Source: Deltaproteobacteria bacterium (GTDB lineage Bacteria; Desulfobacterota; Syntrophobacteria; BM002). From it: a stretch of DNA of 55,762 nucleotides. The stretch is from NCBI GenBank assembly GCA_037384945.1, contig JARRNM010000019.1:1-55762 (forward strand). The letters are read 5' to 3'. The notes below the pieces were generated by a model, which worked only from the letters and a program-made list of their open reading frames with translations, did not search any database and was not told where the DNA came from. The position numbers and the translations under genes were made by a program. This document shows, in pieces, positions 14,086 to 46,653 of this stretch. Position 1 is the stretch's first letter. Each line of letters starts with the position of its first letter.

Positions 14086-14602
14086 CAGGAGTTTCCCCAA
14101 AAATATTTCAGAAACATCGGCCACGGGGAAGCTACTCCACAACGCGCATGATTCGCGCCATCAATTGGCAGGATTCCTGTTTAGTGAGCACCATATCTTC
14201 ATGCAGACCCTCGCAAGGCTGAGAGAGTGAAGATCGGTTGCTCAGATGCTCGTTGTTTCGCAGCTTCCCCTTTTGGCCTCTGCTGATGTCTCTTTTGAGT
14301 AACCTGCCCTGTTGAATCCCACCTTCGGTGGGTCCGCGTAGCGGAATTCAACAGGGCTGACGGGAGGTCCGTGTCACTTCCCCGGCTGTGGTTGGGGGGA
14401 GCCCCTGGCCCCGTTCCGCAGGAACGGGGAACAGGGACGGGGTGCCTTCCCCCGGCCACAGCTGGGCTAGAAGTGACCAGACCGTGAGCCCTGGAACGAC
14501 AGAAGAGACATCAGCTGGGCCACTTTCACTTCTGCACAAATGTAAACTCGCTACTGAACAGAGGTTACAAGAATGGTCCACTTATTTTTGGTAAAACTTC
14601 TG
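14086..14602. mobile_element. MITE family C, copy 1
   Basis: TIR CAGGAGTTTCCCCAAAAAT...ATTTTTGGTAAAACTTCTG; core of about 200 bp shared (inverted) with the copies at 26977 and 52600. Confidence 0.85.
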
Positions 14603-14728
14603 TGCCTGTTTGACTTGACAAAGGTTGAAACAGTTGTTCTATTGTCGATCGGAAGATATGCATAGATTAAATCTCCACAGGGTCAACAACAACATCCAAC
14701 TTCGCCGAAATCCAGGGAGGGACTGTCC

Positions 14729-15313
14729 ATGTTAAAAGAGTTCGAGAAATTAATCTATTTGTTAATCGTCTTGGTCATTTGTTGGAGCCTGTCACTTTCT
14801 CCGGCTCTGGCCGCAGAGGAACCCCCAGCCGTAGGAAGCACTTTGCCGCCAATCAAACTCTTGGTGCCTGACAATCCTCAGGCCAAGAAATACCTGGGGT
14901 TATCTGTGGGGAAGTATTTTACTATCCCGGATATTAAAGCAGAGGTGGTTATCATTGAAATCTTCAACATGTACTGACCATTTTGTCAGAGAGAAGCGTT
15001 CCGGGTGAACGAATTGTACCAGGCTATTGAAAAGCGGAAAGACCTTAAGGATAAAATGAAAATCATCGGTATTGGTACTGGCAACACTAATTTCGAGGTA
15101 GACTTTTTCCGCAAGAAATACGAGGTCCCCTTTCCCCTCTTTTCTGATGAGGGCTACACTATCCATAAGACAATGGGCGAGGTAAGGACCCCATATTTCA
15201 TTGGTGTGAGACTAAAGGGTGATGGGAGCACTGAGGTTTTCTATTCCAAGCTAGGAGGCTTCAGCGATCCAAAGGAGTTTCTAAATTCGATGGTCAAATT
15301 GTCCGGGATATAG
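14729..15313 (+). CDS. Selenocysteine-containing TlpA/redoxin (thioredoxin fold, UxxC)
   Basis: ORFs 14729-14977 and 15005-15313 are in frame across TGA 14975-14977, giving IIEIFNMY-U-PFC-QRE. A SECIS-like hairpin follows. Confidence 0.9.
14997..15011 (+). promoter_or_regulatory. Bacterial SECIS hairpin
   Basis: CGTTC-CGGGT-GAACG; the loop begins 25 nt after the UGA. Confidence 0.75.
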
Positions 15314-18017: not shown

Positions 18018-21000
18018 TTAGGCCTTACGCACATTCACCATGAAGGCCTTGGTTTCCGGAATCACGGTGTTGGGATCACCCACAGAGGGCGTGAGCAGGT
18101 TGGAGCTGTCACCGCCATTCTTGGGAGTGAACCAACCGAAGCACCACGGCATACCAACCTGATGTACTGTGGTACCGGCGACCTTGAATGGCCTGAACCG
18201 CTTGGTCACAATGGCCACCGCCCATACTTTGCCCCGCGCGGATTCCACAATCACCTTTTCCCCGTTCTTGATACCCCTGAGTTCTGCCAACTCTTCGCTC
18301 ATCTCACAGAACATCTGGGGCATGGCCTCAAGCAGCCAGGGCTGGTTGCGGGTCATGCAACCGGTCTGCCAGTGCACCGTCACCCGGTAGGTGCTGGCGA
18401 CTATGGGGTAGCGAGGATCGCAGGTAGCCCGAAAGTCGGCAGCGCCCTCGAATACCTGGACGATCGGATTGATGAACTGGCTGCTCATGGGGTTGTTGGG
18501 AATGGGGCATTCCAAAGGCTCGTAATGCTCAGGGAAGGGGCCGTCCTTGAGACCCGGCCCGAACACATGGGCATGGCCCTCGGGCTTCATGATGAAGGGG
18601 TATTTGGTTTTCGGGTTCAGCTTGCCGTCTGCAGTGAGCATGGGTGGCCAGCCGCCATCCGGCACATCGCCCACCCATTTTTCACCGTTCCAGCTAATCA
18701 CCGGCCGCTTCGCATTCCACGGGTTACCGTAGCGATCCACCGAAGCCCGGTTATAGATGATCCTCCGGTTCACCGGCCAGCACCAGGACCACCCGGAGTA
18801 GAGGCCGATGCCGGATTTATCAACGGTGTTGCGGCGAGCGCCCATATTGCCTTTCTCGGTGTAGCTATTACAATAGAGCCAGTTTGCCGATGAAGTAGTG
18901 CCGTCGGCCTGCAGAAAGGCGAAACTAGGAACAAGACTCCCCGCCTTGTACGTTTTACCCTTGATGGTTACGTCCTTTTGGAAATAGCCGTTGATCTCTT
19001 TGGCCATCTTGTGGGAATCAAACTTGCCGTTGGTGGTGTAGTCCCACTTGAGGTTCTTGATGGGCTCGGGAAAGGCACCGGGCTCTTTTTGATAGAGCTC
19101 ACGAATTTTCGTAAAGAGCTCCATCATCATGTCACCGTCTGGACGAGCATCCCCCGGCGGCTCCGCCGCCTTGTAGCGCCACTGCATCCAGCGGCCGCTG
19201 TTGGTGATGGAACCTTCTTTTTCCATGGAGGCGGCGCAGGGCAGAAAGAAGACCTCGGTCTTGATAGTCTTCGGATCCACGCCCGGACCTCTCCAGAACG
19301 AACCGGTTTCGTTATCGAAGAGATTGACGTTTACCATCCAGTCAAGCTTGCCAAGTGCTTCTCGGTTCTTCCCCGCATTGGCACCGGAGCAAGCCGGATT
19401 TTGGCCCCAGGCAAAGAACCCGGTGAAATCACCGTTGTACATGGCATCAAAGAGGTACAGCCAGGAGTAGTTCTTGCCATTATCCGCCTTCGGCAGCCAC
19501 TGGTAGCCGAACTCGTTCCAAGGCTGGGCCGCGTCACCGAACATGGACTTGAGGAAGCTTACCGAGTACTTCGGATAGTTGCCCCACCAGTTGGCGCTCA
19601 GGGGATCGTGGGTTACAGGAGTGTACTTCTTGTTGTAGACCTCCAGGCTAGTATCAGAGGCCCTGGGTGTTTTCAGGTATCCGGGCCAGATGTGCCAGAG
19701 CAAACAGTGGTCCGTTGAACCCTGGACGTTGGATTCACCCCTCAGGGCGTTGACGCCCCCGCCCGCCATGCCGATGTTGCCCAGCAGCAGCTGGATAATG
19801 GACATGGTCCTAATGTTCTGAACGCCGACGGTGTGCTGGGTCCATCCCATGGCGTACATGATGGTACCAACTCTGTCCGGCGTGCCCGTGGATCCATACA
19901 TCTCGTAGACCTTGCGCAGGTCCTCTTTGGGGGTGCCGGTTATCTCGGAGACCTTGTCGTAGGTGTAGCGGGAGAAATGCTTCTTCAACTGCTGGAACAC
20001 ACAGCGGGGATTCTTCAGGCTGTGGTCCCTCTTGGGGATCCCTTCGCTGTCCACCTCAAAGGCCCAATAAGACTTGTCGTAAGTCCTCGTCTTCGGGTTA
20101 TAGCCGGAAAAAAGCCCGTCGCTGAAACCGTACTTCGGGCCCAGAATAAAACTGGCGTTGGTATAGTAAGCCAGATACTCTTCGTGGTAAAGCTTCTGTT
20201 CAATGATGTAGTTGATCATTCCGCCCAGGAAAGCGATGTCGGTCCCTGAACGCAAGGCAGTATAGAAATCGGCCTTGGAGGAGGTCCTGGTAAAGCGGGG
20301 ATCAACACTAATAAGGGTAGCTCCCTTCTCCTTCGCCTTATTGATCCACTTGAAGGAGATGGGGTGGTTGTCGGCAGCGTTGCTTCCCATGACCAGAACG
20401 CAATCGCTGTTACCGATATCATTCCAATGGTTGGTCATCGCGCCGCGTCCGAACGACTCTGCCAGAGCCGCAACTGTGGCGCTGTGTCAGATACGGGCCT
20501 GATGCTCGATGTAAACCAGACCAAGGGCCCTCATCATGGCCTGCAACGGCCAGCACTCCTCATTGTCCAAGGCAGCGCTTCCAACCGAAGCTATGCCGTT
20601 GGTGCGGTTAACCACCTGGCCCTTATCGTTTTTGGCGGTAAAGCTGGCATCACGGCTGCCTTTCACCCGTTTGGCAATCTCGGTCAAGGCCACATCCCAG
20701 GAGATCTCCTTCCAGCGATCGCTGTATGGAGCTCGGTAGAGCGGCGTGGTCACCCGCTTGTCGTTGATGGCCAGCTGATAAAGAGCTGCTCCCTTGGCAC
20801 AGAGCGTTCCCTGGTTGATGGGATGATCTGGATCACCCTCAGTGTTGATCACCTTGCCCGATCCATCTCTGGCGGTGTGGACAATGATCCCACAGCCGAC
20901 GGCGCAGTAGGGGCAAATAGTGGTTGTTTCCTTGGCCCAGCGGATTCTAAGCTCCTGGGCGTAGGCCGTCACCGGCGCCAGGTTAAAACCCAACCCACCG

Positions 21001-43185: not shown

Positions 43186-43323
43186 AAGGCGAAAAAGGGT
43201 CGATGCGGTAGCCTGTTAGCTCAAACTCTGGTTATAATAGTGCCTAGTTTTGCAATTCTCAGCCTGATTGTGCTTCCCAAAACATCTGGTAGCAAGGACA
43301 GTGGAGTACGAGGAATCAAAGAT

Positions 43324-43668
43324 ATGAAGTTGAGCAGTACAAAAATTCGTAACATTCTCCTGATCTTACTTCTTGTCCCCCTGATTCTTCTGGTGGGTGT
43401 CTGGGGAGGATGGTTTGGCCCGCTGGAGTTGGCCACCTGTACAGCCAGGGGAGGTCAAATCGTCGGGGATTACGGCTCGGGTGATGTCTGAGGTCTGGTT
43501 TACTGCAATGAGCCCCGGGTAGGGCTCTTTAGGTATCTGGTCACCGAGGGTTTCGATCGGCTCCTCGGAAATGAGTCTAGCCCTCCAGAAAGGATTCGCC
43601 CACAACCCTCGCCAGCTCAGCTGGACAGAGCCGACGGGGATAAATCCCCCCCTCCCCTTGCCTTATAG
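43324..43668 (+). CDS. Candidate novel membrane-anchored selenoprotein (114 aa, Sec56)
   Basis: TGA 43489-43491 read through gives ...CTARGG...GDV-U-GLVYC-NEPRVGLFRYL...; SECIS-like hairpin at 43510-43527; RBS GAGGA. Confidence 0.65.
43510..43527 (+). promoter_or_regulatory. Candidate SECIS hairpin
   Basis: GAGCCC-CGGGTA-GGGCTC; loop starts at +25 from the UGA. Confidence 0.65.
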
Positions 43669-43774
43669 CAGAGAAAACGGTTGTGAGTGGATAGGACGGA
43701 TATCCCACTCAGGGTTGCAGGGTGACCATGATGGTCCTTACTTGGAAGGTATCAAAAGGACCGAGAGGCGATAC

Positions 43775-44077
43775 ATGCGACCAGTAACCGGAGTTCCTTT
43801 GCCCAGATGCCAAACCACTCTGGCCGCAACCGATGTCGGCAGCAACCAGGAGGACACTGCAGCCAGAAATCTCTTCGGATTCTTTCTCCTATTGCTGTTG
43901 CTGGTGGGAATTGGTACGCTGATGTTTTTTACTTCAGGATTTGATGCGAGGAGTACTCATCGAAACTCCTGGGCTTCGCATTTGGGTTTAGTCCCTGGTC
44001 AGTTTTTTCAGCTCCCAGCATTACCCCTTCTCATACAAGTAAAGCCACATATTGACACCCGGCATCTATGCTGCTAG
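43775..44077 (+). CDS. Possible small single-TM hypothetical protein
   Basis: ATG after GAGAGG; one hydrophobic stretch; no recognised family. Confidence 0.3.
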   Translation: MRPVTGVPLPRCQTTLAATDVGSNQEDTAARNLFGFFLLLLLLVGIGTLMFFTSGFDARSTHRNSWASHLGLVPGQFFQLPALPLLIQVKPHIDTRHLCC

Positions 44078-44114: not shown

Positions 44115-44741
44115 ATGCTTCTGACCAAGTTTACCATTCCTGAAATTATCTACTATTGCGTGGGCATCCTTTTTGCCATCACCGCCCAAGGTGCCGTCCA
44201 GGGGTTGACTCTTGATCTCTTTGGCCTTACCCCGGAGGGGCAGGAGGAAGAGAAACCTAAAGTTAACTTGAATTTTTTCGCTCACCTGGACCCCATTGCC
44301 ATACTGGTTTTCTTTCTCGACGGTTTCGGCTGGGCAAAGGTGATAAAGGTTGATGACAGCCAGTTGAAGCATCCCAGGATTGCCTGGCTGGTAACTGCTT
44401 ACATGAGCGCCTTTACCAACCTCCTGGTTGCGGTCTCCATCTCCACTGTCAGTGACATCCTCTGGACCTCTCGGGCATTCTACGTGGTTATGGCGCTGAA
44501 CGCCAACGTCTTCGTTTATAATCTGCTGGTACCCAACCCACCCCTCGCCGCCTCCAGGATCCTCTATGCCTTCGTCCCACCACGACACCATGCGCTGTGG
44601 CGCTGGTATGCCAGGCTCGGCCCTTTCATCCTGCTGACCATCGCCGCCCTGGCACGGTTCACGGATGTGGCAATCCTTCATCCCATCACCCAACCACTTT
44701 ATGGAGCGATTATGCGATTTTGCGCCAGCTCATCCTTCTAG
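44115..44741 (+). CDS. Site-2 protease (M50)-like membrane protein, catalytically degenerate
   Basis: AHLDPIA, GFGWAK and NLLVPNPPLAASRIL resemble M50, but HExxH and PxxPLDG are absent. Confidence 0.75.
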   Translation: MLLTKFTIPEIIYYCVGILFAITAQGAVQGLTLDLFGLTPEGQEEEKPKVNLNFFAHLDPIAILVFFLDGFGWAKVIKVDDSQLKHPRIAWLVTAYMSAFTNLLVAVSISTVSDILWTSRAFYVVMALNANVFVYNLLVPNPPLAASRILYAFVPPRHHALWRWYARLGPFILLTIAALARFTDVAILHPITQPLYGAIMRFCASSSF

Positions 44742-44961: not shown

Positions 44962-46653
44962 TCAGCTTTTGGACGGTAGCCTATCGCCAAAGTGGGGAAA
45001 CTTCTCCAGGAGGGAGGCTTTCAGTTCGCCTGCGTCAGCAAACCGCTCTTTGATATTTTTCGTCAGACATTTCAAAATGATGCTTTCGAGCTCCACGGGA
45101 ATTTCGGGCTCAATTTTTCTGGGCGGTTCCGGTTCGCCAGAAAGGATGATATCCATCAGGACTTTCTCGTTTTCGTGATAGAAGGGAAGGTATTCTGTAT
45201 AGACGGCGTAGATTATCACTCCCAGTGCCCAGACATCGCTGGCGATCTGACTCTCACCCATAATCTGCTCTGGTGCCATGAAGGGCCTGGAGCCCACCAT
45301 GGTGCTGCTCATGTCCTGATCCTTCAGCTCTTTGGCCACTCCGTAATCCAAAAGCTTCACCAAACCATCTCTCTTGATCAGGATATTCTCCGGCTTGATG
45401 TCCCGGTGCATAATCCGCTGCTCATGAGCATAGGCCACAATGTCAACTAACTGAATAACGATGCTCTCCTTCTGAGCTTCACTCAAAGAAGATTCCATGA
45501 ATTCTTTGAGCGATCGGCCCCGTACAAATTCTTGCACCAGTACCACCCGGCCCCTCTCTTCCACAACGTCGATGAGTTTGACCGCATTGGGATGGCCCGC
45601 CAGCTTCTGGCAAATATGTGCTTCTTTGCGAAACTGATTATTGAGTTTTTTACTTCTCGGGATCTTGGCCACATAAAAAGGGGCCCGGCCTTGCCGGTAG
45701 ATATCCCGTACCTTCCAAACTTCACCGAAACTTCCCAGACCTAAGCGCTTAATCTTTTCGTAGCGCTCGCCAATCAGTTCGGTCATCTTCATCAAAGAGA
45801 AAAAATCACCACCGAAAGGTATAACTTTCGGAACCAGATGCTTGAGGAATCTGCCGAGAAACCGCTGTGTATCCGGACGTAGGGGCAACGATTCCGTGGT
45901 TTCGGCCCGGTCCGATATGTCCATACTATCACCCTGGTAGCCAATTATTTTCCCCTTTTCGTCGCGGACCACCTGGCCGTCGAGCAGCATGGTGATCCTC
46001 TGGCCATCTTTACGCTTGAAATTTACCTTGAAATTCTTAATGTAGCCCTGGGTCTCAATGATCTGCTGAAAGCGTTCGCGATCTTTTGCATCCCAGTAGA
46101 TATCCTCCTTGATGTCTACTTTCAGCAGCTCATCTCTGCTCTCGTAACCCAGTAGCTTCACCAGGTTCTGATTCACATCCAGAAATCGCCCCTCTGGCGT
46201 ACTTAGAAACAGTCCGTGTTGTTCACCATCGAAGAATCCCTTATACCTTTCGAGGACCTCCCGCTGGCTCTTCTCCTTCAGGAGGACCCTGGCCAACACC
46301 CCAACCCGCCGCAGGACTATCTCCCGAATAAAAGGCTTCACCAGGTACTCCGCTGCCCCCATCTGCAGCCCCTGAGCCACGTATTCCTCGTCGAATTTTT
46401 CCAGTAGAACAATAACGGGCAGAGAGGCAGTAGTGCCTCTTTTCTTCAAACGCCGGAGGACCTCGAGCCCTTTGAGATCGGGGCTCTGGATCTCAAGAAG
46501 AATGACCTCAGGGAGTTGTTGTTCTGCCAAGCTGACGGCTTCGTCGCCGTTGACCGCGACCATCACTTGATAGCCACCCTCCTCCAGCATTTGATTCAAT
46601 TCCCCAGTTGGTTCCTTCGGAGAAGCAATGATTAGGGCCTTTCTCTTGTCCAT
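44962..46653 (-). CDS. Receiver-PAS-Ser/Thr protein kinase
   Basis: REC (PEVILLE, YLVKPF), PAS, then kinase motifs GLGSFGEV, VAK, HRDIKPEN, DYG, APE and DVWALG. Confidence 0.92.
   Translation of the reverse strand: MDKRKALIIASPKEPTGELNQMLEEGGYQVMVAVNGDEAVSLAEQQLPEVILLEIQSPDLKGLEVLRRLKKRGTTASLPVIVLLEKFDEEYVAQGLQMGAAEYLVKPFIREIVLRRVGVLARVLLKEKSQREVLERYKGFFDGEQHGLFLSTPEGRFLDVNQNLVKLLGYESRDELLKVDIKEDIYWDAKDRERFQQIIETQGYIKNFKVNFKRKDGQRITMLLDGQVVRDEKGKIIGYQGDSMDISDRAETTESLPLRPDTQRFLGRFLKHLVPKVIPFGGDFFSLMKMTELIGERYEKIKRLGLGSFGEVWKVRDIYRQGRAPFYVAKIPRSKKLNNQFRKEAHICQKLAGHPNAVKLIDVVEERGRVVLVQEFVRGRSLKEFMESSLSEAQKESIVIQLVDIVAYAHEQRIMHRDIKPENILIKRDGLVKLLDYGVAKELKDQDMSSTMVGSRPFMAPEQIMGESQIASDVWALGVIIYAVYTEYLPFYHENEKVLMDIILSGEPEPPRKIEPEIPVELESIILKCLTKNIKERFADAGELKASLLEKFPHFGDRLPSKS

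Follow-up and report, generated by a model that had tools for sequence, protein, structure and literature searches.

Does the TGA codon at 43489-43491 of contig JARRNM010000019.1 end a small membrane-protein gene, or does it encode selenocysteine (Sec)? The contig, from assembly GCA_037384945.1 of a Deltaproteobacteria bacterium, was analyzed over its whole length of 55,762 nucleotides (nt), hereafter the window. On its plus strand, an ATG at 43324 is followed by 55 sense codons, the TGA, and 58 more sense codons up to a TAG at 43666-43668, giving a read-through product of 114 residues with Sec at position 56 (U56). Re-reading the DNA recovered exactly the frame described by an earlier sequence-only reading of this locus; translation table 11 yields only the shortened open reading frame (ORF), which ends at 43491. 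Our analysis indicates that 43324-43668 is very probably a genuine gene for a 114-residue selenoprotein of a previously uncatalogued family, because the TGA is kept in all relatives, the protein is conserved past the TGA, and full-length relatives carry Cys at the site. A conserved TGA, orthologs with TGA, Cys homologs, and a hairpin resembling a selenocysteine insertion sequence (SECIS) are the four features by which the field recognizes selenoproteins (section 6 of PMC13188914; PMC12013277), and all four were found here.

The sequence-only reading had named three observations that would speak against it: homologs with TAA or TAG at this position, a lack of conservation 3' of the UGA, and the absence of a conserved hairpin. 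When 61 related genomes were searched in six frames, four strong matches were obtained in addition to the window, with identities of 73, 65, 45, and 38%, each spanning both sides of the site with exactly one in-frame TGA; the remaining matches, with E values of at least 0.009, were treated as noise. A metagenome scan added 11 more records, and a genome-contig scan returned the same four genomes, titled Syntrophobacterales or Deltaproteobacteria metagenome-assembled genomes. TGA occupied the aligned codon in all 16 independent records, which represent 11 distinct 60-nt contexts, and none of these 16 records with DNA had TAA or TAG at the Sec56 codon. In the 15 records that are not ended by a contig edge, no stop occurs in at least the first 36 codons past the TGA. 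The lineages with DNA were named A (that of the window), B, C, and D. The gene was present in 5 of the 22 genomes of the order and 5 of 122 of the class, with two real matches among 401 sampled genomes of the phylum. Weak matches in the phylum scan (G155, G089, and G438; E 6.5e-5 to 6.4e-3) were set aside: they cover profile positions 8-58 only, without a stop, in open frames of 70-1040 residues.

The conservation extends well beyond the TGA. The alignment of homologs covers residues 1 to about 103 and keeps the TGA in register. In a 12-sequence alignment, in which identity between lineages is 26-38%, G25, G28, L36, T38, C39, R42, G43, and G44 are invariant before the site and C61, V66, G67, Y71, and G76 after it. 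The ratio of nonsynonymous to synonymous substitution rates (dN/dS, Nei-Gojobori) over the 33 codons after the UGA was 0.14-0.79 in the 13 pairs with a defined value, and 0.12-0.34 upstream (10 defined pairs). Within lineage A, the synonymous rate (dS) was low downstream (0.36 versus 1.34 in L001/L002), which would fit an RNA constraint overlapping the codons. In the window sequence, ATG, GTG, and TTG are absent from all 58 codons 3' of the TGA; therefore, independent initiation of this part is impossible.

Full-length homologs with a sense codon at the site were also found. A profile search of 1.84 billion representative proteins gave 10 matches, comprising six N-terminal fragments that end exactly before the Sec site, one C-terminal fragment, the full-length 97-residue protein P0008 with Cys at the Sec site, and two repeat proteins (P0013 and P0014), which were set aside. 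A search with P0008 added P0017 (full-length, Cys), P0016 (full-length, Gly), and P0018, which comes from the same sublineage as the full-length forms, yet ends exactly before the site. The Cys of P0008 and P0017 aligns with the TGA at position 56, an alignment that the sequence-only reading had proposed to look for. Its expectation that gene callers would truncate the gene also held: in a profile search of clusters at 90% identity, the conserved Cys is followed by exactly 16 residues in 41 of the 45 proteins, so that their last residue is the one before the site. The remaining four are three full-length proteins (two with Cys and one with Gly at the site) and one C-terminal fragment, the only one of the 45 to lack the T-C-x-A-R-G-G motif. 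Databases record the family almost solely as a stub of 53-55 residues. P0016 is a metagenome cluster represented by protein only, and over its first 52 residues it matches residues 2-53 of P0018 exactly. P0016 may reflect a change from TGA to GGA, an error in sequencing, or an allele that is dead. A search of viral contigs with P0008 found no relative.

A candidate bacterial SECIS hairpin lies on the plus strand at 43510-43527. Its 6-bp stem is perfect, with GAGCCC at 43510-43515 and GGGCTC at 43522-43527 enclosing the apical loop CGGGTA (CGGGUA in the RNA) at 43516-43521, as the sequence-only reading had described. The loop starts 25 nt after the A of the TGA, leaving 24 nt between the UGA and the loop, and the energy is -11.3 kcal/mol within a 60-nt context and -10.1 kcal/mol for the hairpin alone. 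The published constraints for bacterial SECIS (bSECIS) elements are a loop of 3-9 nt, a stem of 4-16 bp, a G in the first two loop positions, a distance of 16-37 nt from the UGA, and a minimum free energy of -7.5 kcal/mol or lower (PMC13188914, section 5). The window hairpin satisfies all of them, with a loop of 6 nt, a stem of 6 bp, a G at loop position 2 followed by another G, and a spacing of 24 nt. The minimum-energy fold of the window sequence, the only one so folded, adds a possible lower stem of 4 bp (43501-43504 with 43532-43535), which would extend the element to 43501-43535 (plus strand). The hairpin is kept at the same place in the relatives, where its energy is -9.0 kcal/mol in L002 and L003 of lineage A and -9.3 kcal/mol in lineage B, which also satisfies the constraints. 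Across the 11 distinct sequences, 90.9% of the cells of the 6-bp stem are paired, and two of its six pairs show compensatory changes, from C-G to G-C in lineage B and from G-C to A-U in lineage D.

The genome has the means to use Sec, as the sequence-only reading had concluded: it encodes SelB (385.9 bits against a cut-off of 242.25), tRNA-Sec (75.2 bits against 47), and fdhA with an in-frame TGA within the motif U-H-S-A. Two further comparisons drawn in that reading were reproduced. Downstream of the TGA at 14975-14977 of a redoxin gene stands CGTTC-CGGGT-GAACG, whose loop begins at 15002 and agrees with that of the candidate in letters and offset; and the fdhA UGA (minus strand, first base 20489), for which a loop GG at +24/+25 had been noted, is followed in the minimum-energy fold by an apical loop GGC at +24 to +26. 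The redoxin itself (14666-15313, plus strand) contains Y-U-P-F-C, has a signal-like N-terminus, and matches a ResA-type thiol-disulfide oxidoreductase model weakly (34.7 bits, below the cut-off).

The signal of the single sequence is only modestly beyond chance and is suggestive, no more; thus, the case rests on the comparison with relatives. In the window, 16 of the 123 mechanical ORFs of at least 50 codons that end in TGA run on for at least 58 codons, which weakens the single-sequence case. With our strict version of the published bSECIS rules as a filter, three of these 16 run-on ORFs have a hairpin: the candidate gene, fdhA, and one at about 14350 on the minus strand. The UxxC redoxin at 14975 failed the same filter. 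The ORF near 14350 has 71 further sense codons after its TGA end and the hairpin CCCACC-GAA-GGUGGG (-8.8 kcal/mol); lying opposite to and near the redoxin gene, it is probably due to chance.

Several observations weigh against the selenoprotein assignment or against parts of its evidence. The energy of the window hairpin is not unusual: for the 60 nt after the UGA the fold z-score is -0.60, with 53 of 200 shuffles folding as well or better, and for 50 nt it is -0.08. The hairpin of lineage D is borderline (-6.6 kcal/mol). In lineage C, pairing in the strict register leaves an A.C mismatch, seen in 6 of the 11 sequences, and yields only -3.5 to -3.9 kcal/mol; the hairpin passes only in a bulged register (-7.4 to -9.5 kcal/mol). 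The covariation is reached by 32 of 500 shuffles, and the stem overlaps conserved codons. RNAalifold favors a different, overlapping stem (alignment columns 29-35 with 44-50) that is 87% paired without compensatory change. A SECIS element is plausibly present in every lineage, formed by one or the other of these stems. At the protein level, dN/dS after the UGA in lineage A is 0.49-0.71, a weaker constraint than upstream; only two Cys clusters are known; and the Gly of P0016 is an unexplained exception. Finally, selA was not found in the 83%-complete assembly, and the family is patchy, being found in only 5 of the 22 genomes of an order of uncultured Deltaproteobacteria from sediment.

The family appears to be new, in agreement with the sequence-only reading, which recognized no family. 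The window protein matched no family in Pfam or NCBIfam (June 2026 release) at E values up to 10, selenoprotein models included. For four other members, the NCBIfam search (E up to 1) returned two rows at chance level and nothing else; both belong to P0008 (E 0.086 and 0.093), and neither is a selenoprotein family. Table 1 of a 2026 catalogue lists 119 selenoprotein families and subfamilies (PMC13188914); compared by listed motif and description, no row has U-x4-C behind a single anchor or is a single-pass small membrane protein. The nearest entries by motif spelling are TsoB (UxxxxU) and TsoA (LULAxC), and their NCBIfam models gave no match. BSepDB is built from known families. Our literature search found no such family; an unnamed listing in the supplement of a study is possible.

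The features at the two ends of the gene are as follows. A purine-rich, Shine-Dalgarno-like GAGGAA (43310-43315, plus strand) lies 8 nt 5' of the ATG, and a purine-rich stretch precedes the start codon in all five lineage representatives. The whole candidate coding sequence (43324-43668, plus strand) has 114 codons, including UGA56 as Sec, plus the TAG. The inverted repeat that the sequence-only reading had seen 3' of this TAG is present, and it is imperfect; no T-run terminator was found after the SECIS-like hairpin or after the TAG. Directly 3' of the gene, and overlapping its last codons, lies a variable segment (43659-44037, assigned to no strand) that is present in the window and missing from some population variants. 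In contigs of the DNA runs X1 and X11, 43658 is joined to 44038/44041 with about 37-40 other letters between them, so that about 380 nt are skipped, and the lineage-A relatives L034 and L035 have 111 nt where the window has 420 nt (43629-44048). A second copy of the segment was not found in the genome, and it is thus not a repeated element; the polymorphism alters only the last codons of the ORF. The DNA runs in which the window's stretch occurs carry the labels of marsh, salt-marsh, and marine sediment metagenomes. A contig of the RNA-library run X19, about 93% identical, spans 43245-43543 with the TGA unchanged. We do not count it as proof of transcription: these data are contigs, DNA may be present, the shares are small (0.10 and 0.06), and uncovered parts are uninformative.

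The protein begins with a short N-terminus of 5-9 residues, with two or three basic residues in most Sec forms and one in lineage D. It is followed by a hydrophobic block of 22 residues in all 12 aligned sequences, which in the window comprises residues 10-31 (43351-43416, plus strand), contains the invariant Gly25 and Gly28, and is taken as a single membrane anchor. After the anchor come P-L-x-L-x-T-C-x-A-R-G-G, 11 variable residues, U or C at the site, four residues, and a Cys. The first of these Cys residues is the invariant Cys39 (43438-43440) within the T-C-x-A-R-G-G block, the proposed Sec56 codon stands at 43489-43491, and Cys61 (43504-43506), invariant in 12 of 12 sequences, gives the U-x4-C spacing; all three codons are on the plus strand. 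The motif x2-[PA]-x-V-G-L-x2-Y-L and an unconserved Pro-rich tail follow Cys61. An extra Cys four residues before the site is found in lineage B and the Cys forms, and Ser or Pro stands there in lineages A, C, and D. The sequence-only reading had placed the selenoprotein outside the cytoplasm. The selenoprotein part was supported; an extracytoplasmic location is possible: flanking charges favor an N-in/C-out orientation in lineage A and are ambiguous in lineage C and the Cys forms.

Structure prediction gave limited information. For the window protein, AlphaFold2 on the 12 sequences drew the anchor as one long helix with low confidence, at a mean predicted local distance difference test (pLDDT) score of 54.8, which is not usable. 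For the Cys form P0008, the best model reached a pLDDT of 76.2 and the other four at most 56.2; this one confident model of five suggests that the Sec/Cys site lies in a beta-hairpin loop followed by short helices. No fold was assigned, since the best Foldseek match of this model to the PDB had E 2.2; a sequence profile search of the PDB gave one chance-level match (E 0.081), and the best ESM Atlas score was 0.78, under the lead threshold. A thioredoxin-fold redox protein was rejected as an identity for the product, since there was no family match and no fold match and its motif is U-x4-C rather than CxxC or UxxC.

On the established bacterial mechanism, SelB with Sec-tRNA(Sec) would insert Sec by binding the hairpin at 43510-43527, which has its loop 24 nt beyond the UGA, and translation would then continue to the TAG at 43666. 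The product would consist of about nine N-terminal residues, one anchor (about residues 10-31), a small domain with C-x16-U-x4-C, then V-G-L-x2-Y-L and the Pro-rich tail. It is possible, if doubtful, that Sec56 acts as the reactive nucleophile of a chalcogen switch or relay that is tethered to the membrane and serves under oxidative or soft-metal stress of the envelope. Sec56 could then pair with Cys61 or Cys39 in a selenenylsulfide, probably on the outward-facing side of the cytoplasmic membrane.

This proposal arises from the gene neighborhood of two lineages. Four genes lie directly downstream of it in lineages C and D: they encode an OmpR-type regulator, a HAMP histidine kinase, a secreted MsrA-MsrB whose N-terminus is signal-like, and, as a small ORF containing TGA, an HMA-like product. 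The outer loop of the kinase has only about 33 residues, and the best scores of the kinase were against BaeS and heavy-metal sensor kinase models, none of which reached its cut-off. Kinases with short loops may rely on accessory membrane proteins, and in E. coli stress from copper or HOCl is linked with CusRS/HprRS-type kinases and with the repair of methionine sulfoxide in the periplasm. Three observations count against the proposed function. The context of response regulator, histidine kinase, and MsrAB is found in two of the four lineages with DNA context, and the neighbors in lineages A and B are unrelated; the window's own genome has the cluster, with its HMA-like ORF, on other contigs without the candidate gene; and the flanking charges are ambiguous outside lineage A, as described above. 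A complex prediction of the N-terminal 53 residues of lineage C (code 11) with two copies of kinase residues 1-145 scored 0.00 and, run without controls, is no evidence either way.

The HMA-like ORF just after MsrAB is a second small selenoprotein candidate, located at L037:7807-8109, L031:6451-6765, and, in the window's own genome (G000), contig C153:7825-8112 (L055, minus strand). Its N-terminus is signal-like, the motif F-Y-V-S-U-[YF]-D-V-G comes next, and the remainder is HMA-like; one in-frame TGA was seen in all 14 matches, across 13 of the 22 genomes of the order. It matched no Pfam family, and NF041383 and NF041115 matched weakly, below their cut-offs (NF041115 at E 1e-6). A co-occurrence of the two candidates was considered and rejected: the HMA-like one is present in 4 of 5 genomes with the gene versus 9 of 17 without it, which is no association. 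In G000, the ends of two contigs divide the MsrA-MsrB gene: C109:22815-23363 holds MsrA and C153:8136-8663 holds MsrB; contigs C109 and C153 are probably adjacent in the genome.

Other neighbors were also considered. In lineage C, a gene for an extracytoplasmic function (ECF) sigma factor lies 95 nt upstream. An anti-sigma role was rejected, since only 5-9 residues precede the anchor and no zf-HC2 or RskA-type match was found; the lineage-C gene also has its own sigma-70-like promoter despite the upstream sigma gene, which counts against such a role, and no sigma-factor gene was seen among the scanned ORFs beside the gene in lineages A, B, and D. In the window, 44115-44741 (plus strand) encodes a multi-pass membrane protein of 208 residues that is conserved at 55-56% among lineage-A relatives and at 33-34% elsewhere; each genome searched also has a paralog. 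Pfam, scanned to E 0.001, gave no family for it, and NCBIfam gave a chance-level match only (E 0.035, 13.2 bits); it may resemble a site-2 protease, a likeness for which Pfam gave no support. A functional pairing with this protein was dropped, as the two genes are adjacent only in lineage A and the homolog lies elsewhere in G014 and G018. On the minus strand, 44962-46653 encodes a 563-residue fusion of receiver, PAS, and Ser/Thr protein kinase domains.

Could the TGA be an ordinary stop? The gene would then encode a 55-residue membrane peptide, and the conserved 3' sequence would have some other nature, for instance that of an RNA element, of the next gene's leader, or of a remnant in decay. 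We consider this very improbable. It would account for the products of the 55-residue type that gene callers give in 41 of the 45 clusters, for a hairpin of ordinary energy that could be regulatory or terminator-like, and for a 3' tail that is unconserved and overlaps an indel polymorphism. It does not account for an open frame with invariant residues across lineages of such low identity, for dN/dS below 1 in all 13 defined pairs after the TGA, or for full-length relatives (two Cys clusters and one Gly cluster) that carry a sense codon and the same downstream protein. Nor does it sit well with TGA in 16 of 16 records, none with TAA or TAG, or with the absence of a T-run terminator after the hairpin. 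It is hardly conceivable that the UGA is instead reassigned, or read by a standard near-cognate tRNA for Trp, Cys, or Gly, with no Sec inserted. The Gly of P0016 would suit such decoding; however, the genome has SelB, tRNA-Sec, fdhA with U-H-S-A, and a UxxC redoxin, UGA ends 123 mechanical ORFs of at least 50 codons in the window, Cys is the alternative residue in two of the three full-length clusters, and a model-compliant hairpin stands at the SECIS distance.

If the gene is accepted as that of a selenoprotein, the main functional rival to a redox switch is a soft-metal site for Cu(I), Hg, Cd, or Zn formed by Cys39, Sec56, and Cys61, with Cys52 in some lineages, in a membrane-tethered metal sensor or chaperone. 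The three invariant or near-invariant chalcogen ligands point to such a site, as do the fourth Cys of lineage B and the Cys forms, the best scores of the lineage-C/D kinase among BaeS and heavy-metal sensor models (below cut-off), and a cluster that ends with the HMA-like ORF, whose match to the metal-binding (seleno)protein NF041115 is weak (E 1e-6, below cut-off). In contrast, the protein itself matches no metal-binding family, the fourth Cys is replaced by Ser or Pro in lineages A, C, and D, and the adjacent MsrAB points to the repair of oxidative damage; we regard the metal site as somewhat unlikely. It is quite improbable that the hydrophobic segment is a cleaved signal peptide and Cys39 the lipidated first residue of a lipoprotein, with U-x4-C as the sole redox pair. 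Cys39 is invariant and stands in a lipobox-like position, L-[AGVI]-T-C directly after the hydrophobic stretch. However, the usual lipobox allows Gly, Ala, or Ser at position -1, where all 12 sequences have Thr; the stretch of 22 residues and the Cys at residue 35-39 are late for a lipoprotein signal; and the invariance of Gly25 and Gly28 across lineages would be unexpected in a discarded signal peptide.

Our study adds a well-supported family, without detectable relatives, to the bacterial selenoproteome, and it provides a concrete case of UGA truncation hiding small selenoproteins. The architecture, one membrane anchor and a domain of about 60 residues with Cys...Sec-x4-Cys, is unmatched by the rows of the 2026 catalogue table. 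The narrow distribution in uncultured lineages limits the immediate impact. If the link to MsrAB and the two-component system is functional, selenium chemistry would serve sensing or repair in the envelope of anaerobic sediment bacteria. A broader proposal, which we judge unlikely, is that the gene encodes the founding member of a selenium-based envelope stress module, in which the C-x16-U-x4-C protein would sense oxidant or soft-metal damage, or relay electrons, at the outer face of the membrane, together with the short-loop kinase, the secreted MsrA-MsrB, and the second, secreted HMA-like selenoprotein. If true, no single-pass selenoprotein anchored in the membrane and acting as a sensor or relay would have been described in bacteria before it.

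Among known systems, the candidate is closest in kind to the small, uncharacterized bacterial selenoproteins found by Sec/Cys-pair genomics, such as the dual CXXC motif small protein OS_HP3, the CC/Se motif family, and the hypothetical proteins DG, DW, and DF (PMC13188914, Table 1). These are likewise short and without a known domain, were recognized by the same four criteria, and come from hosts that are likewise anaerobes of the Deltaproteobacteria type rich in selenoproteins. In contrast, none of their NCBIfam models matches, and the candidate has C-x16-U-x4-C behind a single anchor. Like MerT/MerP, CopZ-type HMA proteins, and NF041115, it clusters chalcogen ligands near the membrane, and an HMA-like candidate neighbors the gene in two lineages; unlike them, it has no CxxC or UxxU, and it matches none of their models.

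The eukaryotic SELENOK and SELENOS resemble it in outline only: they have one Sec, a single transmembrane helix, and a short soluble part that is rich in Pro/Gly and partly disordered. The Sec of the candidate lies mid-domain between two invariant Cys residues rather than near the C-terminus, and its SECIS would be of the bacterial in-frame type. The Pfam scan of the window protein at E up to 10 was empty and gave no sign of a relation to either protein. The thioredoxin-fold UxxC/CxxU selenoproteins (Prx-like, DsbA/DsbG-like, and TlpA-like proteins and the window's redoxin at 14975) differ from it in spacing, as the candidate has U-x4-C; it also has a domain of about 60 residues with a predicted beta-hairpin and short helices, no thioredoxin-family match, and no PDB match in Foldseek. 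Nevertheless, they share with it a Sec paired with a nearby Cys, so that redox chemistry is likely, and in the window's redoxin even the letters and offset of the SECIS loop equal those of the candidate.

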